Assembly (NCBI GenBank): GCA_038222225.1
Contig: JBBRHV010000006.1
Coordinates: 1,626-65,625, forward strand
DNA length: 64,000 nt
Direction of reading: 5' to 3'
From: Candidatus Omnitrophota bacterium
GTDB lineage: Bacteria > Omnitrophota > Gorgyraeia > Zapsychrales > JANLHA01
The notes beneath the pieces are model-generated. The model was not told the origin of the DNA and did no database searches. It saw only the letters and a program-made list of their open reading frames with translations. The stretch's first letter is position 1. Every line of letters starts with the position of its first letter. The translations under genes and the position numbers were made by a program. Positions 9,001-33,000 of this stretch are shown one piece after another.

Positions 9001-12000
9001 TCCATCCGGAAATTTGTTCGTTTAACGCCCTTGCTGAAGTTCAGCATCAATTTGGGGAGCTCACCACCATTGTTGTTGTTTATAGACGAGCCGCCGCTCT
9101 TCTTCAAAGGAAGCCGGTTTATGCCTCGCGTGAAAATGATATCATCATTCATTCCGACGGGATTATTTCTCAGGATCAGCTTATTTCGAAAATAAAAGGC
9201 CCTATCGCGCGCCTGTTGGTAACCGGCAATGAATTTGAAAGCTGTGTTGCCCGGGCTGTTTTTTCCATCAGAGAATTTATGCGGGATCAATATTCTGCCG
9301 GGTTTGTCTTGGATGTTCATTTTCCGATGGATTTGATCGTTGCCAATCGTCATGACTATCGCGATGGGGGATATCAAAAGATGATCGCGAATATAAAAGG
9401 CGGGGACTTTTTCTACAGCTATAAATTTCAAGCCCGTCGGATTGCCTATGACATCTATGATGGAACCGAACTGATCTGCCCTTGTGGGGAGGGAAGCGAA
9501 AATATTTCCAATCTTTATGTATGGCCATCTTTACAGAGCATGAAAGATGAATTAAGCCGAGGAACCGGCGGGACCAACGGGGCTGTTCTTGAATCAGGAG
9601 AGGGCGGCGCCTACAAGGAATTGATTTGTCGGTTTGACATGAAAGAAGATTATGAGGCGGATGATTGGAAGGAATCACGGGTTCTTAAGCGCGTGGCACT
9701 TATGAAACAGATCAGGTTGGGTTGGAAATATCCTCAGATGGGAGAACCGTCGGAACAATGGCTCAATGAGCTGAGAGAACTCGTTCTTCATCGTCTTTGG
9801 ACAAAGCTTCAAAAAGCACATCGTGGAGACATGTTTTTCCCTCAAGACATGGTTTCTCTCAATCGGTCGCTGAATCAGCCGTTTGTTTTTATCGTCGATG
9901 AACTTTTAAAGAACGCCCTTGATGCCCAGGCCTTGGCAGGGCAAAGCGGAAATGTCCATCTTGCGAGATCGTTGCAAGGCGGAACATTCGTGATGGCGGT
10001 TTCTGATAACGGAATCGGCGTCCGTCGCCCATTCTTAGGCTCAGAGCAGCTGGCTTGTATTGAGTCTTTGGCAGATCAGCAGAAGAGACGTAATACTCGT
10101 TTGGAAGCAAGTGATGGGGCTGGATTGATCTGGGTTCAGTATCTGGTCGCCATGCGGGGAGGTAAGCTTGAAGTCGAATCTCCCGGTCGCAATGAAGCCA
10201 GGACTACGGTTGTTGTGTCCTTGCCGGCGGATGCGTTAACGGTCATTGACAAGACGGGCTTAGGTTCTCAGACAAATGCTGCAGTCCTTCAAAAGAGAGA
10301 AGATGTCGCTACGCGGTTTATTTTTAGGTTAGCTGATCATTATGGTCTTTCTTCCACTTGTGATCCGCAGGAGATCCTTCAGGTTCTTCGTGCCAGGGGA
10401 ATCTTGAGTTCAGGGGAAGAAAGGGCGTTTGTCAGATATAGAAAAATTTTAAAACAGATGTATCCGGAGCTGAGCCTTGGGCAGGCTGAAGCACGCTGGA
10501 CGGAGGGCTACACATTTTTCGGGAATAATTCTTCTGAGGATTGGGAGCTTTCCGGACTGACGGAAGATTTTACGGTCATGGTTAAGAAACACATCGAAGG
10601 GATCCGGGCCGTTGAACACACCGATCATCCTGCGGATCAGGGCTGGTGGAAGGAAGATGGGCTGAAAATAAGAGTGATCCGGATTACGGATAGTCTTGAT
10701 TTAAAGGCGGCGTTACCGAACGAAAAAACAGAAAACCTGCCGCTGTCATCTGATGATGAAAACGGTTCACTGCACCTCTTTGAGTTTTTGTTCAAGAAGA
10801 TCTTTATTGAGCCAAAATATTTTGGCCTGGTAGCTTTCAAAGAAGGAAGGCCTGTTGGTGTATATGGGGTTTTTGTTTTAAATGATTGGAGAACGATCTC
10901 TGGGCGCGGATTATATGTCGTTCCATGGGAAAGGTATAAGAAAACAAATATCGGGTGGATGCTGGTCTCAAGGATGGCGGAATTGTTCGCGCTCAATGGC
11001 TATAAGTATCTTTATATCCCTGTGGCCAACCGTCCGTCGGCGCAGAAATTTTTTGAGAACGTGTCGGACAATACTGGACGCTTCCAGTTTTTCACAGAAA
11101 CAAAACGGAACGATGACGGAAAAATTCAAAAGGTTGCTGTGAAGCTGCAGGAAAGGTTCACTCCGGTTCAATGGGACATTGATCTTAAGCGTCAGATCGG
11201 CCAAGTCAACAGCGCGGTATTAAATACGAGCCTGTTGCAGCAGGTCCAAAATATGGAGGCAATGTTTAAAGCCTATGAATCGATTCTTAGTGACCATGGC
11301 CGACAGATACACGAGAGAGTTCGAGTGGTTTTAAGAGCAGCTTCTCAAGGCGTGATGAATGCAGAGCAGCAAAAAGAAGTTCGGGCGCTCGTGGCGTTGA
11401 TGCCTGATCCGCAGCATATTGATATTGAATCCGGCGGAGAAAAGAATTGGATCCGTTGGTTTGATTTAAGCCCGGAAAGACTGGGCGCATCTTTAGATCA
11501 AAGCATTGCCGATGGATGTGCGTGGCCGTGCCTGCATTGTGCGGCGTACAATGGCCATGCCAAAACAGTGATGGAGCCGCTTCCTGTTGTGATCGCAAAA
11601 ATTTTAAGCAGAACACAAACGGATATTATTTATCCATTCCAGTTCGATCTGATTTCTTGGCGGGATCTTTTCTTTGGAGTCGGCATTTCGGGATTAGCAG
11701 AGTTTATATCACGGTATAACCCGCAATATCAATTACGGTCATTGCCGACACGAGGTTGGGATAGCGATGATGCCTTTGTTCAGAACGAAGCCCTGCATCT
11801 TGCGCAGCTTAAAATCGCTAGTGGTATGTTCATTCTTTCATTCCATCTGTGCCATCAGCGGTATGACATCTTGCCGGCTATTGCGCAGGCGGTCAGGAAC
11901 GGAGACCGTGCAGAACTCGATGCACTGATCGATGTTTATGCAGCACGTTATGCGAATGTGATCGCTACGTTAAGTCCTGCGCTTGATCGGGTCAGCGTAT

Positions 12001-15000
12001 TTTTACCCGGAGATGTATACGCTCCCGTCTTTGAAGAGGCGACGATCCGGGCATTGAAAAAAGTGTTGAGCATCTTAAACGCTTCGCATGAAGAGATCAA
12101 GCCGCTTGTTGGTGAGATCAGTCATGGGGTCCTTGGGATCCGGGATATGAGATTTTTAAACATCGGCGGAAGGCAGATTTCGTTTATTTCTCGAACGATC
12201 CAACACGACGGCCGCGGGCGTGACTTTTTGGGACGATTGTGCATGGCTGAAAGCGGGGATTTGAACGGCAGGAAGGCGAATATGAATTTGCTTCGCATGG
12301 TCAAAGAACATGGCCGTCCGTATCCGGTTTCTGTCCTGTTTGCCTCTGGACGAACGATTGTCCAAACGCCGCAAGTCAACAGCGCGGTGCTTTTGACCGA
12401 ACCGCTGAGAAAAATGTTCCGCGCATTGAAACCGTGGCTGGTTATCGGCGCCGTTGCTGCCTGGGTGGGTTTTGAAAGAATGAATGCGAATCTCTTTTCT
12501 GGCCCTGAAGGGGGCGCGCATGAGAAATGGATCTTTCTCGACCTTGTTTTAGCCGCCGGTGTTATTGAAGAAATTCAATACAGGTTTGGCGTGTACAGGC
12601 ATGTCTTGAGGCCTTATTTCGGCGTTGTGCTGTCAGTCATCATCAGTTCTTTAGTTTTTGTGGCGGTCCATCTGATCTTTGCGGATGGGACCTTGATCGG
12701 TTTAATATATGTCCTGTTGTTTGGTGTAATTTCTGCCTTGATTTATGAAACCAGCGGCAAGCTGCGCTACGCTATTCTTCTGCACATGATCTCGAACTTG
12801 ATTTGGATCGGCATGAGCGCCGGTCCGTTTGCATATTTTATATTCACGGTCTCGCTTATGGCGCTGATGAAATTAAGCTTTGTTCTATTTATCTTCTATC
12901 ATACGGTCATCGCTGGCGTTAATGAGAGAGGAATCAAGGCCTTTGAACGTTTTGGAAAAACTGATTCGATTGATGAATGGTTAGGTCAAAAAGTTATCAG
13001 ACCGGCGGTGGCTGTGATTAAAAGCCGATGGGCAAAACTTGGCATGAATAAAATGTGGCGAGCAAAAAGCCCGGATGGAAAAGAACATCGCCGCATATAT
13101 GCTTTGGCATTCACAATCAGTGGATTGATCCTGACCTTGCAGTTTGCCGGAGACAGGATGTTCAGATTGTTCTATCCGGTCTCGCCAAGACCTTTGATCA
13201 CTCAAGAAGAGATGCGACAGAACATTCAGCGGGAGAGGGATAAGTTTGAAGCAGCAAAACGTGCCGCCCTCGCACAGACGCCAGGACTCACCACCAATGA
13301 TATTTTTGGTGTGATGTATTCTTACAAAGCGGATCTTTCATTGATCCGGGTTGTTTTATTCCATGACGGTCGCGCATACAGCGTGGAGGTGACATCGTCA
13401 GGTGAGACAATTGTCGATCCGGTAGCGTTATCATGCTACGAGGGCATTCTTACGCTGTTATTTTCCGACGGGCATATGGACAGACATCGTGAACTTCCTT
13501 TAAACGAACGGACTTGGAATGAAGTTGAAGCTTGGAAAAATAGATTGCCTCAAAAACCTGCACCTAAAGTACGGTCGAAACAGGGCGCGCAAAATTCATA
13601 TCATAAATTCAATACAGCGAGTTTGTACAAAGGGGTCAACAGCGCGGTGTTGTTGGGTTACTCGGATAAAGAAGCGTGGAACAAAGAGTCCGGGTTTTTG
13701 CTGGATACATTTTTTACATTTGAGCAGTATGTCGCGGCGGCTTTATATGATCCGGCCTGGGGATTTTATGGCAGTGGGAAGATCAAACTAGGGTTTGATT
13801 TCGGAACCATGCCGATCGCGCTGTCGCCGTTTTTCGGAGAGAAGGTCGCTGAGCGTGTGTACGAGATGTATATCGGCATGCTGAAAGCCGGTACCATCAG
13901 GCCGGATGAGCCGTTTTACATGATCGAGTTTGGGGCGGGAACCGGCGTGTTGGCAAGGGACGTACTGGCATTCTTTAGAGAACAAGCTAAACGCGGACGG
14001 GTTTATAAACGATTCTATGACAATTTGCATTATGTGATCAGCGACCGATCTAGCCCGCTGCTGGAAAAACAAAAGCAGAAGAATGCGGAGTTCTTGGAGG
14101 AAGGCAAGATCCAGTTTGTGATCGGCGATGCTCAAGAGCTTGAAACATTCTTGGAGAAAGAGCGTCCGATCAAGGGAGTTGTATTCTCCAATGAGCTTTT
14201 GGATGCCTTCCCGTCCCATAAAGTTTACATGGATGAACAGGGAGTGGCACATGCCATGGTCTCGATACCGGCTCTTGTCGATCAGCACAGTCCTGATCTC
14301 AGGCCTGGCAGCAGAGGCCGCCTATCGTCAACGATCAGCTTGTTGGCGCAAGTCGGAAAGGTGCTTAAGGCCCACGGGCTTTCGCTTGAAACATTAACTC
14401 AAAAAAGCCGTGAGTTCGCAGGGCGGTCGAATGTAGTCAAACAGATGGTGGATGATGGGGCCGTTGTTTTAAGTCGGGAGGATTTCTGCCGTATCCAGGA
14501 AATTTTCTCCGGTGAGAAAGTCAGTATGTATCGCGAGCTTATCCACAGGGTTATGGCGTTCTCTGAGATGACGGTTCCCGCGGCGCTGGTGCCCGGTTTA
14601 AAGGAATATTTAGATTTCCACAAAGATGAAATGAGGACGGCCCTTCAGGGAGAGTCAGGATGCGCAGTTGTCTCTTCCGGGTGGCTTTCGTTTGCAAAGC
14701 ATGTTTCCGGTTTGATCGATCAGGGATATGTCTTTACGATCGATTATGGAGAGACTACGGCGACATTGTTGAGCGCCAGGCGCAGAGAGAATTTTCCGAT
14801 TTCGATCTATCATCGACGTTTGGGAAGAGAGCGCAATCCTTATCTTCACCCTGGTGATGTGGACATATCGGTTGCGCCGGATTTCACGGTCTTTGCCCAG
14901 GCGGGGCTTGTTCATGGCTTGGTTCCGGTTTATCACGGGGAGCTCCGGTTCTTGCAGGCAGATTCAACCGAAAGGATTGACTCCGCGCAAACCGCTTCAC

Positions 15001-18000
15001 GGGTTAAGCGGCTGTTTACCCAGATGGCGATCGAGGCCAATATTGAAATTAATGCTCTTCGAGCACATGGATTTTCGGGTGATCAATCTCAGAGCATCGC
15101 TGCTGCGATGGAGCGTTATTTTAAAGAGGGTCGCCAGCCTGCGCCGGGAGAGCTTGACGCTAAAGCTCAGGCGGAATTTGACAGCCTTCTTCAATTCGGA
15201 CGTAACGATGCCGATGACAAATATCCTATCTGGGTTGAGCGTTTCTTGCATTCATCCGGGCATAAGATCTTGATCCAGCAAAAGGCGGGCACAGATCCAC
15301 ATTATTCGTTTGGCCAGCCGATCTTGCCGCTGTTTCAGGTGAAGCCCAAGACATCTTTGGCAGTTTCGAATGATTTTATCGGAACAAATTCATCCGTGAT
15401 CGACGATCAAAAGGTTGTTGTTGATATCCGCAGCCTGGCTGAAGATGCCTACGATGAAGCGTTTGCCACACGCCATTCGAATTATAGACGTCATGACTCC
15501 CATCGAGTCCATCATTGCGAGGTCAACACCAATATTTTGCAGGGATTCCTTCAGCTAAAAGGATACAGGGCTATTCAAGTTTTTCATACACCAAAAGGTG
15601 AACCGCAATATTTTGTTATGTTTATGGTTAACGGTGAGGTTTGGGTTGCTGAGCCAACTTGGCAGCTCATGATTCCTGAAGAGAATCGCACTGATGATCT
15701 TCCGCATTGTCTGGTTTTCAAAGAAGCGGATCTTGAGAAAATCATGCAACAATTCGGTATTGTTGAACATTGCCGCGTAAGTTGGCGCAAATCGGTGAGT
15801 GAGAATCGAGACAAACTATTTGAGACCGGGACAAGGGATTCTCTTGGGACGAACGGATCGGTTTTAAATTCAGGCATAACAGGTGTTAAAAAAGGAATAG
15901 GGTATGTGAGTTCGCTCTGGCAAAGGATGCGGCATGGGCGCGCAGACTCTTTTGATCTTCATCAGATGGAGGCTGCCTTCGGATTGCATGTTTTGGGACG
16001 GTTCCTTCGCCGTCGCCCAACGGTTCTGGTGATTCGCGGGAAGGGGCCGTTAAGCGGGCTGCAGGTTCTGGCAGAGGGCTTGGCCGCTCAAAAGTATAAT
16101 GTTGTTCTGTTCAATTATGATTACAGATTGCCGATCAGACAACTAAGCGCTTCGCTGATCGCAGCCTGGAGAGTATTCCAGAAGGCCCATCCACGGCGGA
16201 CGGAGTTTGGGGTGGTGGCGTATTCTTACGGGACAACAGTTCTTCGTTTGGCTGTGGTGAAATCGTTAGATGAGGTCTTCAGAGAGGGGCACATCATTGA
16301 GCTGGCACCGCTCTTGGGCGGATCTAGGAGCGCCTTGAGCGCATCGACGCCGGAGGGGATTGCCTTGGCGCGGTCTTCCGGCAAAGCGGATATGATCCAG
16401 ATAGGGAAGGCCTTGGATCCGAATGGTGAGTTCCAGGCGGAGTTGTTTAATGAAATCAATATTGGATTATATGAGGACCGGTTCAGCCGTGCTTCGCGTT
16501 TTGTGATTATCGCCGAAGGAGATGAACTTGCGCCGCGCCTGGACCGCCGGCCGGATCATTTCACGCGAAGGTATCAGGAGAATCTCGGAGAACATGTCGA
16601 AGTCCGTATTAAGCGGCAGCCGCATGATGCTTTGCCCTCAGAGCCTGCGGCGGTTACAAAAGTGATCGAGCGGTTGAACTCTCGACTTAGACCCGGTGTC
16701 GATACCGCTGAGAGAAAAGCAGACGGCCGTCAAGGGAGAGACATCAATAGCGCGGTGTTGTCCTCTGGGGCTGAGCCGGATTTTTCTTTCGACAAAACAA
16801 TTTCGCCCGATGTTCATCGTGCCAAGATTCGTTATGTAAGCCAAAAGAGAATCGCTCAGGATATGTCACGCACTAGCCATGACCGGGTTCGGGCTAAGGA
16901 AGCCTATTTGCTTGCAGTTCGCGATACGGCGATCAATTTAGCCCGGGCTAGGGATGAGCGGGTCGCTGCTGTACTGCGGAAAATATGTGATACGATCGTG
17001 GTTCGTGCCGGCCCTATGAAATATTTATTGGGGGCCTACCGTTCAAAAGAATTGTTCCTTGATGAATCTCTGCTTTCTGATCCTCAACAGTATTATGAAT
17101 TAATTCTCACATTATTGTATGAAGCGCGAGCGATTGCTTACCCGGCAGGTTTTAATGCGGAAAATGAGGGGTTTGCCCAAGATTGTTTGGTCAACGGGCT
17201 TATTCCAGAACGGATCCATCCGCGCACCGCCAAAGAGCGTCAAAAGATCGTGGAGGCGCTCAAGCTTTTACCAAAAATTCAATCCCCGGTGAATTATCTT
17301 TTAGTCGTGCCGATGTATAAGGAAATGTTCCGTTTGAGTCCTGAGGGCGAAGACGCGTTGCGGCGCAAGGTTTTGGCCATGGCTGTTCTGCATCGGTTGA
17401 ATCCGAATTTGAACGGCCGCATGCTTCTGGTTGATGACGGAACTCCATCCCTGGCATCTGAGGCGTGTGCCCGTGAGATTTGGCGTCAGATCCAAAAGGA
17501 ATTCCAGGCTCGCGGCGAGGTACTGGATCCGGAAGCCGTTACGTTTGCCCATGTCTCCGTTGAGGAAAAGAAAAGCAAGAAGAGCAGAAAAGGATGGGCG
17601 GTTCTGCGGGGGATGCGTTTGGCGCTGGAGCAGGGATGGGCAGATTATATTGGTTATACCGATACGGATATTTCAACAAATCTGCTTCAGATGCCGTTTA
17701 TTTTATGTCCCCTGATCGAGCGCACGGCTGACGTTGCGATCGGATCCCGTTGGGCCAGCGGCGGCAAACAGGAAGGTGTTTCGTTTAGACGGATGGTTTC
17801 AAGTAAAGTCTTTAATATGGCGGTTCATATGTTTCTGCCGGTTTTGTGGCGGATCAGGGATACTCAGCGGGCGTTTAAATTGTTTAACCGGTCAGTATTA
17901 AGAACCATTTTGCCGTATGCCAAGGAACCCGGCTTAGCGATTGATACAGAGCTATTAACACTTGTCCGTATCGCCGGACGGAAAATCATTGAAGTTCCTA

Positions 18001-21000
18001 TTGCATGGATTGATTCTGCCGAGGCAAGTACGATCGATCTGGGGAAGTCTGCCAAAGAAATGCTTTTGGCAATTATGCTGCAGTCGCGCCATATGTTCGA
18101 TCTCAGGCTGATTTTGAATCTTCGGCTTGCAGAGAGGCTGAACCCTGAAAGGAAAGGAACAGATCTCGAGGTTAATAGCGCTGTTCTGGATGCAGAGAGT
18201 TTAAGTTGGAGTGGCTTCATTGAATTTGAACATGCCGGAATGAAACTGCTGGCTATTCAACGCAAGACAGAAGGGCTTGCCGGACGCAGCCTGGCCCGCG
18301 CGAGTATCGAAATTTATCAGCTGATCAGAGGTGTTTCTGAGCCTGCGCTGACCGGATTTGTTGACGTCTGGTTCCGGGAAGACCGAACAGCGGCGGTCCA
18401 TAAAGAATTTTCTTGGAATGATTATTATGCCTTAGGTGTCTTGGGACATGCCCATGGGCCGTTGAAATTAGGTTATTCTTTAGACGGGTATGATACTGTC
18501 TGGAGCTATGGCGAACGCCGGTTTCTGGTTGGGGAAGACCATCCGGCCTTGTGGGTCCATGCGCAATCACGCAATCAGGGGTTAGGGAAGGTCCTGTTTG
18601 GGGCCGCAGCCGAACTGGCCCGCTTGCGCAATTGTCATCTGCTTCGTGTTGAAGAATGCCAGACAGGCGGGCGCAGTCTGTATAGACAGTTTGTTCCGGC
18701 GGATCAACAGCAAAATATTGACGGATCTTCGGTCGTGCTTCAGCTGCAAGGCCGTGATGCACAAAAGACGGGTGAATCTCAAAAGGAAACGAATGCGTCG
18801 ATTTCTGGCGTTGAGGCGGAGCATAACAGTTCGGCTGGGATGCAGGAAAGGTTGGCAAGACTTTGTGAGGAGGCCCTTCATCAAACAGTTTTCCCTGTTC
18901 GAGGCCAAAGCACGGAGGATGTGAAGCGGCTTCTTATCGAGGCGGATAAACAGACGCATAGTATTTTCAGATTCCATTTGGCAAGACTGGTTCTGGCAGA
19001 ATTAGGCCGTTGTTGTTCAGGGGCTAAAAAAGGATGGATCTTCGGTGATGTCGGGGAAGGAACACTTGATCGGATCGGTCCGTTGGGCGATATTGATCTC
19101 ATTATCGGAGTCGCGACCGAAGAAGATAAAGTTGGCGCGGCCCAAAATTTAGCGAGCATTAACGCGTATGTGACGTACTGGTTAAATAAGCTGCAGCATA
19201 CCAAAATAGAGGAGCTCATTGAAACAAGGAATGCGAAAAGAATTTTAACATTGGCAGAGATTGAGGGTAACCCGTTCTATATCCACAATGTCGACAGTCC
19301 TGCTTCGCTTCTTTTTGATGCCGAAACAATTTCAGATGTTCGACGCGCAAACGGATCTGAGTCTGCCGAGGCCAACAGCGCGATCCTGAATCGAGAGGAC
19401 GCGCTGGCCCGGCTTCGCAATCCGGATTATGTTGAGCCGCAAGAATTGACCAGCACCGATCTTTTGGGGACGTGTGAAAAAATCACGCGCTGCACAAATA
19501 CAAGAGTTCAATGCTCATTTGTTCCTCATCAGCAGCATGCTCCCGGAGGTGTCTATGTTGCGGCAGGCGTTGCGCAGACAGCAAGGATGACGGCAACGGG
19601 GCAGGTGCATACACAGACTCAATTTGAAATCACGATCAGGGCAGGTCAAAGAGAGGACATGAAACATGTTTTGCGCATGATCTTAGAGAAGCTGGTGCGT
19701 TTGAGGGATAAGGTGGCTCCGGAAGCATTGGACGCCTTTGATGTTCTGGCGCAAAGAAAGGCCGCCGACATTTCTCTTCATGCCGCAGAGGGAGAATCGG
19801 CGCTTAGGTGGTCACATATGATCGGGCTTAAGGTTGAGGCGGAGAAGCATTTTAATCATGTGCCGGTGAGCATTCAGGCAGATGTGATCTTGACTACGAT
19901 GCCCCGGAGGGAGGCGGCACAGCGTTTGGTTGTTAAATTAAGTCAGGAACAACGGTTTATGATATTGGCTCCGACCGGGTTAAGCCCGCGGGAGATTGTG
20001 GATCAGCTTCTTGCGAAAGAAACCGTTGAGGAGGCAATTAAAAATATCTTGAGGAAAGGGATCCTTCGCGGGATTCATGCCCATGATGATATCCGAAAAG
20101 CGTTTCAGGGCAGCGGGATTTTATGTGAAGCGCTCGTGTCGGATGCCAGGGTCAACCGGATCCATATTTTCAGCGTGCCCAAAAGGATCACGGTTTTAAA
20201 AAGTTATCACTCAACGCCGGAAGATGTGTGGGACGCTTTGCGCCGGGAGAAGGGGCTTAATAATCAGCTTCAGGCGGATTTTGCTGAAAGCGTTCATTCT
20301 CAGATTGCCGCTGATATAGTCATGCGGCGTTTAGGTTTGTGGCGTCTAAAAGAAAAGAAAGACGGGTCTCTGTTTAGAGTCTTAACCCGTTTATTCCGGT
20401 TGAGGCGTTCGTCTTACGGTTTGGCCCAGGCCAGGGAAGACGTGGCACACATCAATTCCCAAATGGCAGGATCTGTTGCAGACTCCCTGACGTGGGTTTC
20501 GGCACCAACATATTTCTTGAGTCTTTCTGATGAGGAACGCAAGGGCCTTGAGGAGGAGATCAAATTTCAACTTCGAAAATTTGGGCCGAAGGCTGTTGAC
20601 CAGGAAGAATTTCAATTGAAATTGAGAGAGTCGATCGCGCAGCGTTGGAGAATCCAGAAGGGGATGACGCCGGAAGAAGTTTTTGACCAATGCGCGCTGT
20701 ATTGGATCGTGGAAGTTGCAAATAACTTCATTCCGAAATTCAATGCCATGAGGTCACGCTCAGAGCGGTTTGAATTTTTGAAGGCCCAGCTTCCGCAGTG
20801 GTATCCGGCGTTGGTAGAGACGTTAGATTCTCTTCAGAGTTTATTAAATGACGGAAGTACATCTTTTGATGTTCGACAGCAGATAGGAACACTGGGCATC
20901 TCAGTTGCGGAACAGGACCTTTTATCAAAAGCATTTTTAGATGAATTTGGGTTTGTGCTGCTTTTGGGACAGTCCGCTCAGGGAACAAAGTCAGATTTAT

Positions 21001-24000
21001 CGACAAGCGCCAGTGTTCTAAATGGAGAAAGCCAGGAAAGTGCGGACTTTGGCGAGGATCAAGATTTATCTCAGATTCTGTTGATGGCCCAAAGGGACCT
21101 CCGGTCTGGGAACCTTTCGCGGTTTGCCGGGATCAATGCTGAAAATCATAAAGAGCGATTATCAGGATTTATTTCTGAGAGCATTCTTCAGAATGAGCGT
21201 TTTGCGCAGGTCATCGGCCTCTTGTCATTTATTTCTGATAATCAGGCTAGGTCTGCTTATGGCTATTCGCCGATTTGTGAACATATGAGTCAGGCGGTTG
21301 CGGTTGAGACGGCAATAAAAGAATTCCAGGTATTAGGCTTGGCGGGCTGGAAGGTCGATTCGAGAGTTTTGACCGGTGTCAAGGATTGGTGGCCCATCGG
21401 TTCTCATCATTCAGCCGCGATCGTTGTGATCGGGGATATTCGTTTCTTTGTCGATATGACATTTCCTGTTCTCATCGAAAGCAATTCAGATTATGCGGAT
21501 TTAAGCAAGCCTCATGGGCTTGTGATGATCCCTGAACAAGTTTTGATCGAACATCCTTCGTTCCTTCAGCTTTATCAGACAGGGATCGCCAGATCCATGG
21601 ATTGCGGATTTTCTGAAATCAAGGGCGTCCAAAGGGAGGATTTAAAATTGACCATGCGGCTCCTTTCTTTAGACGAATTTTCTGATGTGATCGAAACTAT
21701 TCCCGATGATTTTGTCGCTGAACGCTACTCCAAAGAAGAGAGAGCTGCTTTACCAGCCCAAATTGAGAGCCAGGCACTCAAGATCTATTGTTTCTATCTT
21801 CCTCGGGCGGTTTCTCAGGGAGTCCTGGCAAAAGGAGTCGGCATGGTTTTTGTCCGCCAGGAGGGAACGGGCCGTCGCGAGATCGATTTCTTTTTCTTGC
21901 GATGCAGCCTCACTTATATGGGATTTGGGCCGGAAATGATTAGGCGCGTTTTGAGAGAACTTCGCAAAGGAACATCAGGCGTGAAGGAAGTTGGAATAAG
22001 CTCCGGGTTCTTGAAGATGCTTCCGGAAGACAACGGGTCTTCAAAACGGGCAAGGCTTTCGAGAAAGTTCTTTTGCTATCTGGGATTTGAAGGTGATCCG
22101 TTGACGTTGCGTTTGCAAACTTCCGAGGAAAAAAACAAGGTCCCCTCCGCAGCGACAAATGCTTCGGTCATTTTGGATGGAAAAACCTTGAGCGAACAGA
22201 AACCGCTAACGGTTGAAGAATCGTGGCAGCTATTCGCCAGAAAGTTGGAGAAGGGGGCGCGTACGAATAGTCATTCTGGATTGGAAGACAATCCGGTCAT
22301 GTCGCATTTTAACGAGACGAAAAAAAGGAACGCGAATAATTCCTTTGAAACAAATGCGTCCATTCTTCTGGAATGGAGATTGAGGAAAATCATGCAGCCG
22401 TTTTTTGAAGGCGGATATTACGTCGAGAAGCAGGGGGATTCACGTCATGAAATGTTTCTGCGCGTGTGCCATCCGGAGCCAGAGAGACAGGGCGTGTTTC
22501 GTGGTGAAGACAAGACCCGCGCTTTCTGGGTTCAAGCGAGGGAAGATGAGTTTGAGGTCAACTGGGTCTTTCCGGATCTTCCGCCTGGCAAAGGTCTGGG
22601 GCGTGCTTTCATGGCCAGTGCACTTTTATTGCAGGATGGTTTTTGTGGAGGAAAGAAAAAGTTTATTATTGAAGACACAAAAATCTGGTTGTGCCGCAGC
22701 TTCAGAAAGCTTCCCGGATTCGGGATTTTTTATTGGGCGAAAACGTTTCAGTTTGTTGCGTTGCTGTTTTGGTTGGCGGGCCGCCGGGATGTTCTGAAAT
22801 ACAGGCTGACCGGGCGCGTACCCGAGGTTTCAGCGAAATTTAAAGCCTGGCTGCATGAAAGAAATGAACACAACAAGGGCAAGGCTGTAGGGACAGAGCT
22901 TCGAACGACCAATGCCGCGGTGTTGGGCCGTTGGGTGCATGCGTTCGAAGAGGGGTGGGGGCGTGCGGCGAAAACAACCTTGAGCAGGGTTGCTGATGAA
23001 TCGCTTGCATGGAAAAGAAAAATTAATGAGTGGGTCTCTTGGCTGAAAATTTGCCTGCACGTGACGGACCGCAGTGATCGAGTGGTTGCGGCACAGCAAC
23101 AGGATATCCAGATTATTGGAAACAATTTCGGTACGGAGCAACACCCAGCCCGCGTCGGATCGGTAGTTCATATGTCCAGTTCGCATGAACAGGACCCGGG
23201 ACTACCGGTCTGGCGCACATATTTCGAAGGAAAACTCAGCGGCGGGGTAAACGCGGCTGTGCTTGTCCCTGATCGCATGGGCAAGACGTCGGCGGACTAT
23301 TTTGATGAACTTGTCGCGCAGTTTAATGATCAAAACAATGAAGTTTGGCAGAGATTTCGTGCTTCTGTTGAAGCGAACCCCGATCAGTACGATTCAGTTT
23401 GGTTGAAAGTTTTGAAGCAGGCGCGTGCATTAGAGGTTGAAACACAGAAGCAGGTTCAAGAACCCGTGAAGATATTTTTATCGCTGGATTCCGTCTTGAT
23501 CGTTCCTGAAGATGGAAGCATGACCGGTCCTTTATTGCCGTTGGCGCCGGATTCGGAAGCAACGCATCATTTGCCTGCCCTGCCTGTGGTGCCGGAAGCA
23601 ATTCTTTTATTCATTTTCGTTTTGAGCCGCAAAAGACAAGGCCGCGGGGGGAAAGGCAGGGAGTACAGTTTAGCTGCATTCGTTGAGAGCATGCAGAGCC
23701 GATGGAAGGCCGTGAAACGTGCTGGTTTTACGGGCAAAGATTTCTTTGGAAAACGCCATGTCTATAATCTCACGTTGCGGTCTTCGTGTCGGAATTTTGC
23801 GTCAACAGGGTTGAGTGATCCGTCCGTAAAGTTTGCAGGAGAAAGTAACGCATCAGTTCTGAAGGATGCAAAGAATCGTGAGAAGCGTGACAGTTTCAGA
23901 AGTGGACGGCGGTCTCTTTCTGTCGTGTTCACCGTTCTTGGAGTTGCGATCGTTTTGTTTATCGCGCAGACAGCTTTGGCAGGATTGGAAAGGGCGGCCT

Positions 24001-27000: not shown

Positions 27001-30000
27001 AATATCGCGACTTTGGCAGTTATTTGGCAACCCATCCATGGGTGTATGATCTGAAAAAAGGAAAAGCCGACAGCGGGGCCAATTCATCCGTACTGGGACG
27101 CAGAGTTGAGCTAAAGGATTTAGTTTTTCAATTTGCTTTTGAGATGGAACGCCGCGGCCGCGTGATCCGCACCCGGGCAGGAAGGATCCTTGATATTGAA
27201 GAAGACACTGAACTTAAGCGTTCCAGGGTTATAAAAGAGGAGGGGATGAGCACGTACCTCTTGGCTGACCGTTATGAGAGAGGATCGTCCTTGATGGCCT
27301 GGGTTGCGCAGGGAGAGATCATTGGTTACGGCTCTTATGTTCTGTCAGAGAACGATTCAGCGTGGATCGGATTCTGCATTTTTGAAGAGTATCGTGGCCG
27401 TGGGTTTGGCAGCCGGGCCTATTCAAAGTTGATCAGCGTTACACAAAACATTGGCCTAAGGCCAGTTGTGCAGTGGAGATATCCGCCTATTACTGTTTTA
27501 AACAAGAAGCTTTATCCAGGTGCGCGCTGGGATCTTTTGCCGTTTTTGTTGAGAAAGGGATTCCGTCCGTGGTTTGCTGATATTTCAGAAGAACACATTG
27601 AGCGTATTGCCAGAGGGGAACATGTCGGTTCCCGTATTGTTCACCGGTTGGTCCAACAGCCGTTGGTCTTGACGGACCACGCGAATTCCGCTGTTTTGAC
27701 TTCAACAACAGTTGGTCACGAACCGTTCGCTTACCGTGTGTGGGTCAAAACACCTCCGGTGTTAGCCGAAGGTAAATTTGCGGAATTGAGTGTAAAGGGT
27801 GGCTTATTGAGCGCGGCCAGATGCGCCGAGCTTAACGCCGAGTTGGAAGGAGCGAAGAAAAAAATTCTAGCCGAAGGATTCTTTGATGAAAAAGATTTTG
27901 ATCTGGAAGTCCGCATTCTCCGACGTGCCTACCATAGTGAATCCTTCACGCGACAAGTTAAAAAGACAATTCTTTTCCTTGATGAGCGGACATTCCAACA
28001 TTCGTTTGCTCTTTATCTTGCCGTTAAACATGCCATAACAGATCTCTGGGTGGATAAAAATGCGGAAACGCTGATCGCGCATGATCAGTTCGGACATCTG
28101 AAAGATTATATTTCGGAATCTTCCAAAGGAAGATCTTTTAATCCGGCCTGGCGTGAGATTTTCACGATCTTAAACGTTAATGTTTTTGAGTTTTTGCTTT
28201 TGCGTGATCAAGCTCTCAAGAAAGCTGAAGAATTCATTCGTTCGATCGGAAAAGAGGCGGCCGTGCACGGGCTGTTTTGGCTTTATGTATTGATGCTGTC
28301 TGATAGAGAAAAAAAGACGCCCATAGAATGGATCGGCGTGGTTTTCGCCCTTGTCTCTTACAGCCCTGCTGTTTATCCGGCTATCCGAGCACGGGCGCAT
28401 GCTTTTGGTATGTATGAGAATCCGCAGAGGGCACAAGCTTTAGCGCGGAGTGTGGAAGGGGTTTTTGCAACCAAGGACTTGCAGATCGGGGCACAGGCTC
28501 AAGCCAGGCTTCAGGAGTTGCGCGGCTATCAAAAGCAAAGCGAGATTGACCGTTTGGCGGAAAGCATGAGAGCTCTGGTTTCTGCAGTGCAGCGCTTGAC
28601 GGATGAGGGATACAGGCCAGAACAGTTGACGTTGGCGTTTTTCAAAGACGTTCCTATTAATCCGGTTGATCGTAAATCGTGGTTTAAGCCGTTTAAAAAA
28701 TGTCAATGGGATGATCCGTTGCAGAGGAATTTGAGTCTCGGGCGGACATCGCGCGTGAGGAAATCTCCGGGATCTAACAGTGCGGTGCTTAATGGTTTTG
28801 AGCCGTCCGGGTCCTCTATAGGGCATCCGGGCCCAGCTGCTTCCAATAAGGTTTGGCTGATCGTTGCGTTTGTGCTGCCCATCGTTCATGGACTGAGCAT
28901 TGTGCTGGCGAAATATATTCTGGGCGTTCAGCTGGTGCATCCGATTGGGTATTTGTTTGCGTTTTTTGCTTGGACAAATATCTGGATGTTTTTGTTCCGG
29001 ATCGCACAGAGCTTCAGCAACGGCCAGCGTAATGAACAAACGCCATGGAGCTTGTTGCGCCATTGGAGTTTTACTCATCGGGAATGGACGGTGCTTGAGC
29101 AGTCGACCCGGGCAGAAAAGTGGATGATCCGCGTGAACGCGTTATTCAGCCAGTTTATTCTCACGCTGTTATTTATTTGGTCACTGAAAAGCGGCCTTTT
29201 AACAGCGGTTTATTCCATTTTGCAGACCTCCGGCTTTGTGTTCGGCCTGTTTCTTGGAGCGCTTGTTCTGGGAAAAATTCTAAATATTCACGCGGAAAAA
29301 TTACGGTTCCGTCATTTCGCCGGCATTGGTTTAGCTGTGACCGGGGTTGTGTGGGCTTTGGCAAGTGTGGGCATAAGTCAGGGCCGCGGGATCCGGGGCC
29401 TAATTGAAATGGTCATCAGCGGCTTAACCAGTTCGGGAGCAGGGTATGCCATCGGGTTGGCCGGGCTGGTCGGCTTTCAGGCCCTTCTGCAGAAGATCAT
29501 TATCAGTGTGATGAATAAGGGCAAGCCGTACCGGCAGAAACAATTGCCTTATGTTATGACAAAATACGGATACCGGTTTGGGATCACGACAGCGTTGTTA
29601 ACGCTTCTCGGATTAGCCATCATTTCTCCTGCCGTGGCTCCGTCGGTCGCTGAGATTGCAGCGTGTTTTTTCAATCCGTATTTGATCGCCTTGGCGGGAA
29701 TTTTTCCAATGATATGGATCACGACCTATACCTTGTACCGCAAACTTCCTTTATTGCAGCTGACCTTTTTCCGTGCAACCATTCCTTTCTGGGTCATGCT
29801 CGGGTCATTTGCCGCAATGCATACAGCGGTGACGTTCAGCCAGGTCATATCCGGGCTTTTTGTTCTATCGGCGGCGGTTGTGGCAGCGACGGGCACTCAG
29901 AATGGAAACAATCAAGACGCGGTGCCGGATTTTCAAGCAGAGAACGGCCAGGACAAAAGAGAAGTTGTCGTACGCTGCCATTCTTGGTTTAAGCCATGGG

Positions 30001-33000
30001 AAAAAAGGAAGAACCGGATCCATTTGCGTCCGGCCAGTAGAATTGTTTATGTTGCGAAGTACATCTGGGATCAATTGAACATTCGTATGATCGTTGAAAA
30101 GGAAGGAGATCAACAACAGGTGGATGCCCGAAGTATCAACGGCCTTGCACGTCTGGCAATCTTTGACGGGGAAAAAATTTCAATTCGAACAGAGGGCTTG
30201 GCAGATAGGCAGATCAAAGGCAAAGCGGTTGAACTTTTTGCTAGGATTTTGAGAGACCCGGGGGTTCTTCAGCACAAAACGATTTGGGACATTTTTTATT
30301 TCTTTGATGAAGGGCGGGGGATAGATCAATTGTCCTTGCGTAAATATAAGCGTGCGGTTGATTTGATCAAGCTGGATGCGGCGGAGTCGGACCGACCTGA
30401 TAGGGCGCAAGTCAATTCCTCAGTTCTATTCGGAGCATCTCTGGCGCAGATCGATGCCTCTATCGTTGGTGATGTGGTCGGAATGATCATGTTTGCTTTG
30501 GGGTCGGCGGTTACCTGCATTGCGGCCCTGTTGATATGGCTGGTTAGAACACAGCGGTTCCGTATTCATGGGTTCTGGGTTAGGAGCTATACACCGGAGG
30601 AGATGAAAATTCGCCGGAGCGTTCATGCGCGGATGATCGATTTTTGCATCGGAAGCAAGCATTCTCAGAGAATGGCAGCTCAACGCATGGCGGGCCGTTT
30701 TACGCATTCGGCACGCAAATCATACAGATATCTTGTTGATATCTATGGAAGAGAAAAAAGCAAAACGGAATTTTTAAAATTTTTGAGAGAAACAGAAAAG
30801 GATCGACTGGTTACTTTTTTAGTTTTCTTAGAAAAGAAGAAGATGCGGTTGATCGTCGCTCCGCGATTTGTGGAAGGCGGAAAAGAATTCCGTCATCTGG
30901 ACATGCAGCATGGGTTCGCTTTGGAGGGCGTTCTAAAAAATTATGTTTACGGATATTTTGAAGGGATTGACCCAACGGACGATCAAGGAAAGATCGTGCT
31001 GATGTATTTGGCGGGGGAGGAGGGGTTCAAACAGCTACAAGAGTTGGCATTTTTATTTATTACAGGCGGAATATCCATAGTGAAGCCAGTCGAGCTCTTT
31101 ATGGATTCGGGAACGATAGGTGAGATCAAGACTGTGCGTGATCTTTTGCGTGTTGAGTATTTCTATCAGATAAAAAAGCAGAAGCAAAAAGAGGCGTTAG
31201 AAAAACGCATTGCCGAGGATAGGGCCGCGCAAGACGGGACCAACGCGGCGGTTTTAGAGAACGGCACAGCGGATCATGAACAGGACGGTGGCGAAACAAA
31301 TGCCGCGGTGCTGGATTCCGAAAACGAAAGCAAAGGGGAATTTTTGGCCGGGACCCAGCAGGGGATTCGGCTTGGGCTTTTGACACTTGAGGAGGCGCGT
31401 CTTTGGGAGAGGGCGGCAAAGATTGTTGATGCTCCTGTCGGCATGGAGATAGAATTCAGTCATCCGGAAATTGCGACATTAGGTGATGATGAGTATGATC
31501 TTCCCTATTATATTAGCGAACATTATTCGGATCCTCATTTGGAATTTAATCTTGAGCCATCTTGGAATCTTGGCATTCAAAGATATTTGGTAAGGCATAT
31601 TTACCGCAGTATGGGGTTGTCTGAGGATGATGTGATCTCGGTCCAGTTAAACTGCGGTATCCGCAAGAAAGATTATGAGGGGCTTTCTCAAGCTTCCCGC
31701 GGATTATTTTTATCTATGGCGCATTATTTAATGCTTGCGGTTACGATCGTTTATGCATCAAATCAAAGGATCTTATCAAAGAAATCAGAAAAGGTGGCCG
31801 AAAAACGGGATTGCGCTGAACCGCTTGATGGAGAACCCTACATTCGGATCGAATACGGTTTTCTTGATACGATCGATGAGGGGTGGCTGGTTCTCTGGAT
31901 CTTGCATCAGGTTATTTGGAAAACTGCAAGGTTCAGCGACGATCAAAAAATTTCCGGCAAACTCATTCGTGAAGAGGAGCAGTTGCTAATCAAGATCGGG
32001 CAGGACATGGTTATTCAATTGCATGAACGTCTTCCAGGTATTAGAGGATTAAGTGCGAATGATATATTTGACCTGTCGGATGCTCGGACGTGGTTTAGGT
32101 TGGTTCCGTGGCGCCAGGAAAATCCTGCTACGGTGAAGGCCATTGACAATCTTCTCCAGAAAACTGTGCTTCAAGTTTTGTCCACTTTAGGAGGGTCAAA
32201 CCATACGCCAGAGAAGGAAGTGCCGGTTTGGATTTTACCGGCTGGAAATCGGGAGACATTTTTAAGATGGTTTGGTAATCGGGAGCAGGCGATTGCTCAT
32301 ATTCCTGAGCCTACAGGTGGACAGGACGAGGTAAGGGATGGCGGAGTTAATTCTGCCGTTTTGGATCAGAGAAACATTGTTGGTGTTGAAGTGCACTGTC
32401 CGGCAGGATCAGGATATTGGCTGAGAGATATTCTTTATGAAGGGATCCCGGTTCAAGGCGGGCTGGTGATCCGGTATTATGATCAGTCGCGGTGGTCGTC
32501 AGGAATTGCAGGGATACGGACGGTTCGCAGTGATCATGGATTTTTTACAGAAGTGGATATGTTAAGAATATTAAATGGAGAGGTCCCGACAGACATTTTC
32601 TACGTGGGGGCTTTTCATTTGGGATGTGTTCGGCATGCGTTTGAAAGCGCGCTTCAAATTCAAAAGACAGGCCTGTGGAACGGGTCTCAAGCAAATCATC
32701 ATTTCATTTCAAACCGCATTGCCTGTGATTGTGATGATTTCGATATTCGTGTCAGTGATGCTTTGCCGAGGCTGAATCTGAGGACTGCAACGCCGTTTGC
32801 CTGGCGCAGAAATTGGAGTGTCAAAGCAGCGGTTATTCGGGGAGATGAGGTTGTAAGTAACACACGATTTATCGATCAGCTTCAAGCGAGGCTTTATTAT
32901 TGGAACGATGTGCCGGAATTTAAGGAATGGATAAGCCGTGGGATTCAGCAGACAAACGCAGCGGTTTTGAACCAGAGAATGTTTGAGATCGTGGATACAC

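Follow-up and report, generated by a model that had tools for sequence, protein, structure and literature searches.

A giant open reading frame and its recurrent motif

The window analysed here, 64,000 nucleotides (nt) of contig JBBRHV010000006.1 (assembly GCA_038222225.1, positions 1,626 to 65,625, forward strand) from a Candidatus Omnitrophota bacterium, is dominated by one giant open reading frame (ORF), which runs on the + strand from nt 78 to nt 56891 and encodes 18,937 amino acids (aa) with no stop inside. A short peptide, termed here the junction motif, recurs along this ORF. One of its copies lies within copy 1 (nt 22911-23846, + strand; aa 7612-7923) of a pair of paralogous units, in a loop that is motif-free in copy 2 (nt 56070-56888, + strand; aa 18665-18937), the last unit of the ORF, which ends at the stop codon.

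The encoded protein is a mosaic. Pfam identifies Rhomboid, APH, Metallophos, TPR, Pkinase, HATPase_c, Rce1-like, two methyltransferase families, GNAT, HPr, PALP, AlaDH, HTH (helix-turn-helix), and SEC-C: many distinct families, none of them dominant. DNA-binding HTH units and membrane units alternate in the single chain, in which soluble enzymes of metabolism and eight or more separate membrane-spanning regions also occur. By its host, its length (the class requires at least 10,000 aa), and its tiling with diverse Pfam domains, the ORF belongs to the "multi-enzyme" class of Omnitrophota giants (10.64898/2026.06.07.730766). Its start is set here at the first GTG (nt 78), which is the first possible one, so that the rhomboid is provisionally the first domain. 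The stop-free frame reaches back to nt 3, upstream of that GTG, and a different frame, perhaps that of a gene lying upstream, closes with a TAG at nt 34-36.

The junction motif has the consensus [T/V/A/I]-N-[A/S]-[A/S]-V-L. The exact string NAAVL occurs 12 times in the ORF, and the relaxed pattern N-[AS]-[AS]-[VIL]-[LIVM] occurs 41 times; 300 shuffles of the sequence gave a mean of 1.0 match and a maximum of 6. The residue preceding Asn is T, A, V, I, or S at 40 of the 41 sites, the one further upstream is mostly G, and the residue after Asn is in every case small (A or S). Each motif position shows codon variation, with both AGC and TCN in use for Ser. Because codons differ freely among the copies, selection evidently acts on the peptide.

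The 41 sites divide the ORF into 42 segments with a median length of about 420 aa, mostly between 200 and 1000 aa. None of the sites falls within the 21 Pfam stretches, where random placement puts a mean of 5.6 (P for zero, 0.002). The sequence around the sites is rich in polar or flexible residues: these make up 0.70 of the 14 residues upstream and 0.65 of the 15 downstream, compared with 0.54 (z = 8.1 and 5.2, respectively). Entire enzymes are accommodated between neighbouring sites. An enzyme dependent on pyridoxal phosphate (PLP) fills aa 10960-11344; residue 2 of alanine dehydrogenase, as seen in solved structures, aligns 28 residues past site 11345; and the PLP-enzyme and GNAT units have the sizes of normal single proteins.

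The sites upstream of the paralogous pair, all on the + strand like every site listed here, are TNAAVL at nt 723-740 (aa 216-221) and 3648-3665 (aa 1191-1196); ANAAVL at 5235-5252 (aa 1720-1725); TNAAIL at 6669-6686 (aa 2198-2203); TNSSVL at 8931-8948 (aa 2952-2957); TNAAVL at 10272-10289 (aa 3399-3404); VNSAVL at 11205-11222 (aa 3710-3715), 12375-12392 (aa 4100-4105), and 13635-13652 (aa 4520-4525); TNSSVI at 15384-15401 (aa 5103-5108); INSAVL at 16743-16760 (aa 5556-5561); VNSAVL at 18171-18188 (aa 6032-6037); ANSAIL at 19371-19388 (aa 6432-6437); and TNASVI at 22155-22172 (aa 7360-7365). The sites that bound the pair, and those of the region comparable with a related contig, are given below. 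Further downstream follow VNSAVL at 32346-32363 (aa 10757-10762); TNAAVL at 32952-32969 (aa 10959-10964), which starts the PLP-enzyme unit; ANAAVL at 34107-34124 (aa 11344-11349), which starts the alanine dehydrogenase unit; TNSAVV at 35490-35507 (aa 11805-11810); SNSSVL at 36768-36785 (aa 12231-12236); INSAVL at 37269-37286 (aa 12398-12403); VNSSVL at 38805-38822 (aa 12910-12915); ANASVL at 40206-40223 (aa 13377-13382); TNAALL at 40269-40286 (aa 13398-13403); VNSAVL at 43383-43400 (aa 14436-14441); GNSAIL at 44595-44612 (aa 14840-14845); ANSAVL at 46185-46202 (aa 15370-15375) and 48891-48908 (aa 16272-16277); INSAVL at 49704-49721 (aa 16543-16548); INAAVL at 52383-52400 (aa 17436-17441); and ANSAVL at 55056-55073 (aa 18327-18332).

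Several near-motifs escape the strict pattern: GGTNGAVL (aa 3167), LGTNGSVL (aa 5259), SGANSAVF (aa 15100), KGANAAVS (aa 15629), QSTNAAVQ (aa 17939), GATSAAVL (aa 17508), HDTSSAVL (aa 18166), SAVNSSVQ (aa 1684), and TNASVN (aa 8935). The true junction total could be 45-50. Motifs also occur doubled, 19 residues apart at aa 10389/10408 (nt 31239-31313) and 21 residues apart at aa 13378/13399 (nt 40206-40286); if both sites of such a pair were cut, a tiny spacer peptide would be freed. Two more familiar roles for the motif were considered and set aside. An N-glycosylation sequon (N-X-S/T) is ruled out by the third position, where A is as frequent as S; internal translation restart at the V/M codon is ruled out by the codons found there, which are GTT, GTC, GTA, and GTG for V, and ATC, ATT, and CTA where I or L takes its place.

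Relatives differ unit by unit

Related contigs were compared over stretches of 13-21 kb. The most informative, L001 (ERZ795055 NODE-178), contains 4,428 aa of related open frame collinear with aa 6586-10419 of the window. Nine sites are common to the two by position, and identity is 42/54 over the motif residues as against 70/156 over their flanks. Sites kept in L001 include TNASIL at nt 22350-22367 (aa 7425-7430), the two that bound copy 1, ANSSVL at 27078-27095 (aa 9001-9006), ANSAVL at 27681-27698 (aa 9202-9207), SNSAVL at 28773-28790 (aa 9566-9571), VNSSVL at 30411-30428 (aa 10112-10117), and TNAAVL at 31239-31256 (aa 10388-10393). The second member of that last doubled pair, TNAAVL at 31296-31313 (aa 10407-10412), is absent in L001. 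The near-motifs at aa 8935 and 17939 align to intact L001 sites and look like decaying sites.

The large differences between the window and L001 all begin and end at sites. A stretch of about 450 aa (aa 6975-7425), seen when nt 19374-22350 are compared with L001 1-1170, is present in the window only and ends at site 7426. At its upstream edge the window reads QGTKSDL opposite the intact L001 site SETNSSVL; it seems that a unit together with its site was inserted at an existing site, the older copy of which then decayed. Conversely, L001 alone has a GNAT-like unit between its sites 571 and 791, and three additional units where the window retains the decayed TNASVN. Elsewhere, one unit is swapped for an unrelated one between conserved sites.

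Two other contigs cover the 3' end. L003, from the genome RA.bin146, has the same neighbour genes, and its ORF stays open to the end of the 21 kb, closing with a copy-2-type unit at 57% identity. L002, a JGI metagenome contig that encodes protein P0001, has the same arrangement; P0001 is one unit longer than L003, the extra unit being inserted at a site. Altogether, five unit-level insertions, deletions, or replacements were found among relatives, and all five are bounded by sites. This identifies the site-delimited segments as the units of evolution of these ORFs.

The genes 3' of the giant ORF are of the housekeeping kind: an HMGL-like enzyme, 2-keto-3-deoxy-6-phosphogluconate (KDPG) aldolase, a PMT_2-type glycosyltransferase, a radical SAM enzyme, mnmA, and mutL. 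For the flanking MnmA, the best match, at 81% identity, is from Candidatus Omnitrophota bacterium RA.bin146; its runner-up match is at 52% (partial), and the best full-length ones reach at most 44%. With the shared neighbour genes, this places the window on an Omnitrophota chromosome.

An ancient pair of paralogous units

Similarity between about nt 23030-23460 and about nt 56190-56580 had been reported in a preliminary description of this DNA, which took the two for an internal paralogous pair. The paralogy is genuine. In a BLASTP alignment the two regions are identical at 118/253 positions (47%; E = 1e-56), and the halves of copy 1 match copy 2 individually (E = 7e-31 and 8e-28); both peptides quoted in that description lie in the frame of the one ORF. 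Its coordinates need adjusting. In frame, the first region begins at nt 23031 instead of 23030, and the homology is wider, covering nt 22875-23705 in copy 1 and nt 56028-56825 in copy 2. Self-comparison of the ORF in chunks matches aa 7600-7876 to aa 18651-18916 (44% over 280 aa; E = 7e-55), and alignment with MAFFT extends the homology to both unit ends, aa 7612-7923 and aa 18665-18937. Copy 1 has a junction motif at either end, TNAAVL at nt 22908-22925 (aa 7611-7616) and SNASVL at nt 23844-23861 (aa 7923-7928), both of them kept in L001; copy 2 starts at TNAAVL, nt 56067-56084 (aa 18664-18669).

The two units share one order of elements: long N-terminal helices with the conserved sequences WLKI..VTDRSDR and RVGSVVH.SSS; a four-helix core; and then, C-terminal to the core, a stretch rich in proline, a hydrophobic helix (LPALPVVPEAILLFIFVL in copy 1 and FPVMSGSIFLFISILV in copy 2), and a cluster of basic residues. 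The N-terminal part of copy 1 (nt 22911-23180, + strand; aa 7612-7701), which reads WLKI..VTDRSDR and RVGSVVHMSSS, is modelled with low confidence. The core, in contrast, is confidently predicted by AlphaFold2, and is the same in both copies: nt 23181-23459 (+ strand; aa 7702-7794, module residues 91-183) in copy 1, with helices at module residues 99-110, 127-138, 144-155, and 162-183 whose predicted local distance difference test (pLDDT) values are 83-97; and nt 56340-56588 (+ strand; aa 18755-18837, module residues 91-173) in copy 2, with pLDDT 89-95. The input was an alignment of 14 sequences, and the mean pLDDT values over the whole units are 60 and 62. The tail of copy 1 (nt 23571-23660, + strand; aa 7832-7861) consists of the hydrophobic helix and the basic cluster SRKRQGRGGKGR; in copy 2 the hydrophobic helix LSAFPVMSGSIFLFISILV (nt 56703-56759, + strand; aa 18876-18894) is followed by GRRR.

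When did the pair arise? Between copies 1 and 2, dN/dS is 0.15-0.23 and the proportion of differing synonymous sites (pS) is 0.72, so that synonymous sites are saturated; moreover, the core of copy 1 resembles its L001 orthologue no more closely than it does copy 2. An ancient duplication follows from this. It is also one of few. Among the 42 units only two paralogue families can be detected, this pair and a trio at aa 3711, 12911, and 14437. The preliminary description had concluded that the gene grows by internal duplication: the duplication is real but ancient and rare, and as most units are mutually unrelated, internal duplication is a minor growth route.

The trio units (nt 11208-12377, 38808-40208, and 43386-44597) each start at a junction motif, and two of the three contain the sequence GC..PCLHC, a CX3CX2C motif typical of radical SAM enzymes, on which Pfam makes no call. 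The trio was considered as the source of a missing protease and ruled out, since the CX3CX2C motif (GCAWPCLHC) in two members points to a radical-SAM-type enzyme. Separately, the TPR unit (nt 6050-6550; aa 1999-2158) contains tandem repeats, aa 1999-2056 matching aa 2101-2158 at 45% identity; these are ordinary TPR repeats.

The pair could also have arisen by fusion, if two once-separate giant genes, each ending in this tail-anchored unit, had been joined when a stop codon was lost. Indeed, copy 2 and its orthologues always come last before the stop, in synteny with the HMGL-like and aldolase genes; the unit that follows copy 1 opens with two hydrophobic helices; and the distances (the copies as far from each other as from the L001 orthologue, with saturated synonymous sites) would place such an event before these lineages. 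However, no copy-1-type unit in the relatives found is followed by a stop codon, the L001 frame continues into the same downstream unit, and the region after copy 1 has no similarity to the N-terminal rhomboid unit. Fusion thus has a real claim on the origin of the pair, but we lean against it.

A junction motif gained inside copy 1

Within the four-helix core, copy 1 reads KLS-GGVNAAVLVP-DRMGK where copy 2 reads KLS-MAEA-DRMGK. The two differ in length by six residues, and V-L of the former aligns to M-A of the latter. In nucleotides, the difference is an 18-nt insertion in window copy 1 only, GGC GGG GTA AAC GCG GCT, encoding GGVNAA (nt 23241-23258, + strand; aa 7722-7727); with the V-L that follows, it makes up the full motif GGVNAAVL (nt 23241-23264; aa 7722-7729). 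The inserted residues are module residues 111-116, with N-A-A-V-L at 114-118, and are located in the loop that links helix 1 (WRTYFEGKL) to helix 2 (TSADYFDELVAQ). The pLDDT of N-A-A is below 50. The equivalent loop in copy 2, MAEA (nt 56394-56405, + strand; aa 18773-18776), is six residues shorter, motif-free, and confidently modelled.

Both the MAFFT and the BLASTP alignments bear out the report that a motif is present in one copy and missing from the other within otherwise continuous homology, and the low confidence of N-A-A in an inserted stretch of loop agrees with the view that the motif is not a structural part of the domain. Other points of the preliminary description need revision. 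It had called the motif a linker; the motif does not join modules but sits inside a single core, confidently predicted as one fold, in the helix 1-helix 2 loop. The description had itself named, as an outcome that would count against its reading, a motif region that aligns to a conserved structural loop in both copies; the loop is present in both, and confident in copy 2. And of an insertable "cassette" there is no sign in the DNA: motif codons differ, and the best other copy matches at 19/24 nt, which amino-acid identity explains.

The direction of change follows from a profile search of 1.84 billion representative proteins, which found 12 homologues of the paralogous unit. The six residues occur in one of 15 aligned sequences, window copy 1. 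They are absent from copy 2; from the syntenic orthologue in L001, which reads KLSVAGADLMGK at this position; from three copy-2 orthologues, which together with copy 2 read KL[SA][MI][AT][ED]ADRMGK; and from nine distant homologues. Since every other aligned homologue lacks these residues, the motif was gained in the window's lineage: judged by the alignment, the extra motif is a lineage-specific gain in copy 1. Nor is the gained peptide a poor likeness. GGVNAAVL is the extended consensus, ranking 10 of 41 in a leave-one-out weight-matrix score, and chance cannot explain so full a match.

The nucleotides of the insert offer no hint of copying. Most motif copies match the insert at just 10-16 of 24 nt; the nearest, site 1192, matches the insert region at 19/24 nt, and amino-acid identity alone accounts for that. 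Flanking repeats at the 18-nt insertion were looked for, and none was found.

Two further searches returned nothing: a word-indexed search of 5.8 billion proteins with copy 1 as query, which also missed P0003; and a scan of GTDB genomes with the two-copy alignment, in which the exact peptide patterns used miss the orthologues. P0003 was found by a hidden Markov model search of cluster representatives; it shows 51% identity in a MAFFT alignment, and long exact words are shared. Negatives of the word-indexed search should not be trusted for fragments of giant ORFs.

A second junction code

Seven distant homologues from other assemblies (P0004, P0005, P0007, P0008, and P0010-P0012) have no N-type motif, as the motif of the window may be called. 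Instead they are punctuated by D-x-[AS]-M-L, the D-type; P0011 alone has seven copies in 1,657 aa. The codons of this motif vary too, and the residue after Asp is often bulky (F, K, Q, or H). N-type and D-type motifs never occur together in one protein.

The D-type motif also turns up in and around the core. In six of nine distant sequences (P0004 has two repeats) it lies directly upstream of helix 1, as D[FQ]AML, for example KDFAMLAWREW. The window equivalent is QDPGLPVWRTY, in which QDPGLPV (nt 23190-23210, + strand; aa 7705-7711) may be a relic site. P0005 and P0012 have DKAML in the helix 1-helix 2 loop, the same loop as the window insert; P0009 consists of the tail of the unit only, with a degenerate site before it. 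Junction motifs have thus been gained and lost repeatedly within this unit, and the helix 1-helix 2 loop is one of the places where they recur.

On different contigs of GCA_035477715.1 (L083, encoding P0011, and L084, encoding P0012), D-type sites adjoin a conserved spacer of about 40 aa, SSPVP.FPGSPERKEKTGALG..GTG; one copy in P0011 has D-type sites on either side.

Are the junctions processing sites?

Five features suggest that the junction hexapeptide is a site of endoproteolysis, and that the ORF encodes a polyprotein of about 42 protein-sized units. The motif lies only between such units, in flexible linkers; its residues are kept as the flanking sequence drifts; whole units are gained, lost, or exchanged there; each protein has one motif type and another lineage has the other, as expected from co-evolution with a single reader; and HTH units, soluble enzymes, and many membrane spans could hardly function tethered to each other. 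All told, a multi-unit ORF with an ancient paralogous pair, a gained site, and junctions that serve for processing is probably the best explanation. In this model a single lineage-specific protease would read the junction motif. In copy 1, the gained GGVNAA together with V-L in place of M/V-A creates a full junction motif in the loop, and cleavage there would nick the unit into pieces of 113 and 199 aa within a single fold. The pieces may remain associated, or helix 1 may pass to the upstream part.

Which protease might do the cutting? The ORF itself offers two intramembrane candidates: the N-terminal rhomboid (nt 171-662, + strand; aa 32-195), which has HxxxxHxxxN, GLSA (with the Ser), and AHLGG (with the His); and an Rce1-like/CPBP domain (nt 12528-12803, + strand; aa 4151-4242). 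Against NCBIfam, the rhomboid best matches rhombosortase (TIGR03902; 35.8 bits, cut-off 84), ahead of GlpG (25.8 bits), and the CPBP domain best matches the MrtJ/MrtS sorting proteases, below cut-off. Both thus most resemble processors of C-terminal sorting signals, at scores that all lie below the curated cut-offs. The tails of the paralogous units (nt 23571-23660 and 56703-56770) look like such a signal, with P-x-[LF]-P-V-x-[PS], a hydrophobic helix, and an R/K cluster, which is a lead only: neither GlyGly-CTERM nor any other CTERM model of NCBIfam matched either unit or either tail at E values up to 1.

If the cut is assumed to follow the second small residue, then P1 is A (31 sites) or S (10); P2' is L (38), I (2), or V (1); and P4 is T (15), A (9), V (9), I (4), S (3), or G (1). 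The recognition motif established for rhomboids calls for a small P1, a hydrophobic P2', and a large hydrophobic P4 (Strisovsky et al. 2009; PMC2941825), so that P1 and P2' agree, and P4 partly. On balance, the rhomboid is at most an unlikely candidate for the junction protease; a trans-acting protease encoded elsewhere is equally possible.

Several observations weigh against processing. Apart from the rhomboid and CPBP domains, searches of the ORF by Pfam, NCBIfam, and PDB sequence found no peptidase; lenient Pfam scans of 19 mostly unannotated units found none either, and no dedicated soluble protease is present in the flanking genes. From the topology of GlpG, a rhomboid active site is expected to face away from the cytoplasmic side, and the first junction (aa 217, about 20 residues past the last rhomboid helix) is presumably cytoplasmic, as most junctions are expected to be, which tells against a rhomboid. 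A site within what is predicted to be a compact helical bundle would be odd for processing. In P0012, two sites 13 residues apart would free helix 1 as a tiny peptide, and such spacing would fit a binding or hinge motif as well. The structure models, from 14 sequences and with mean pLDDT 60-62, are shallow, and the packing of helix 1 on helices 2-4 is a prediction. Finally, both the cleavage and the protease are things that we infer throughout.

Some of these points would be met if the motif were never cut at all, and served as a short linear motif, either a hinge or a docking point for a chaperone, targeting factor, or modifying enzyme, in a giant protein that stays one chain. The extra motif in copy 1 would then be one added docking point on a surface loop. 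A motif in the folded four-helix core, motif pairs 13-21 residues apart, and the failure to find a soluble protease in the ORF (by Pfam, NCBIfam, and PDB sequence search) are all readily accommodated. However, HTH units, soluble enzymes, and at least eight membrane-spanning regions would then all be tethered in one chain of 18,937 aa; and units are swapped, inserted, and replaced at motifs regardless of their neighbours, as expected of units that are independent after release. We regard a hinge or docking role as unlikely, without dismissing it.

Cleavage might also need no protease, if the invariant Asn (Asp in the other lineage) attacked its own peptide bond via a cyclic imide. The sole residue that switches between lineages is N to D, both of which are capable of this chemistry; the N-type Asn is always followed by A or S; and no dedicated protease was found. 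Asn-lyase sites, as known from asparagine peptide lyases and from C-terminal cleavage by inteins, need a folded catalytic environment, whereas the motif occupies polar, variable linkers or a low-confidence loop. Moreover, in the D-type a bulky residue (F, K, Q, or H) often follows Asp, and that chemistry leaves the conserved V/M-L, two to four residues downstream, without a function. Self-cleavage is thus very improbable. A motif that is the mere translation of a DNA-level element (a mobile cassette, recombination site, or uptake sequence) has almost nothing in its favour beyond the 19/24 nt that site 1192 has in common with the insert region: codons are free at each position and include both Ser families, most copies match at 10-16 of 24 nt, the insertion lacks flanking repeats, and the D-type lineage has the same codon pattern.

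Comparison with known systems

Viral polyproteins are cut at short linear motifs by proteases such as picornavirus 3C, the coronavirus main protease, and birnavirus VP4, which cleaves (T/A)-X-A|A. The proposed system resembles these in its many units in one chain; in a short motif in flexible linkers, lineage-specific and yet uniform within each protein; and in the short spacer peptides between doubled sites. It differs in being a chromosomal bacterial gene amid housekeeping genes, with 42 metabolic, signalling, regulatory, and membrane units, whose cleavage we infer.

SEA and GPS autoproteolytic domains are nicked inside the fold and yet remain assembled; their sites are self-cleaving and structurally strained. 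The gained motif of copy 1 likewise is located in a loop inside one compact fold, but it is a copy of an inter-unit motif inserted into that loop.

The likeness to rhomboid and rhombosortase systems is that a rhomboid, in which the catalytic Ser and His motifs are present, forms the first unit, and that the paralogous unit ends in the layout of a C-terminal sorting signal: motif, hydrophobic helix, basic cluster. In contrast to the rhomboid recognition motif, P4 here would be T, A, V, I, or S rather than large and hydrophobic, and most junctions lie away from membrane helices. Asp, which is deleterious at most positions for the rhomboid AarA (PMC2941825), is invariant in the D-type motif. As for rhombosortase itself, the 35.8 bits of the window's rhomboid fall short of the cut-off of 84, and the tails match no CTERM model.

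Among cellular proteins, the nearest comparison is with the published Omnitrophota giants. West-Roberts et al. 2023 (bioRxiv 10.1101/2023.11.21.568195) suspected that these proteins are cleaved post-translationally and proposed C39 and S8 peptidase domains for it; the cleavage points were stated to be unknown, which blocked structure prediction unit by unit. A 2026 preprint (10.64898/2026.06.07.730766) describes "class 1 multi-enzyme metabolic cluster" giants, with no mention of cleavage, motifs, rhomboids, or polyproteins. The ORF in the window is like those giants in phylum, in exceeding 10,000 aa, and in its array of mutually unrelated Pfam domains, among them GNAT, HATPase_c, methyltransferases, and kinases. 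It is unlike them in having rhomboid and CPBP domains in place of C39 and S8, and in that 41 candidate cleavage points can be defined. A recurrent junction motif, a rhomboid, and the term "polyprotein" are absent from both reports, and nothing relevant turned up in literature searches for the motif strings or for polyproteins in Omnitrophota. As far as the searched literature goes, neither the junction motif nor its second dialect or turnover has been described; polyproteins with linear sites are known from viruses.

Implications

An open question is whether the giant Omnitrophota proteins work as intact chains or are processed into pieces. The junction motif is the first concrete candidate for the cut points, and the 42-unit arrangement makes these explicit and testable. 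The motif also supplies a rule by which such ORFs can be split into units for annotation, and the co-varying N-type and D-type motifs provide a handle for finding the protease. Copies 1 and 2 constitute a natural experiment, in that one fold occurs with a site and without it, at a difference of 18 nt.

More broadly, a bacterial phylum may express dozens of unrelated proteins (enzymes, regulators, and membrane proteins) as a chromosomal polyprotein, cut by a site-specific protease at junctions whose code switches between lineages and whose sites turn over even within folded units; we take this to be a serious possibility, just short of probable. If true, it would mean that cells use a virus-like expression strategy as a general way of organising genes, and would supply the cleavage points so long missing for the Omnitrophota giants.

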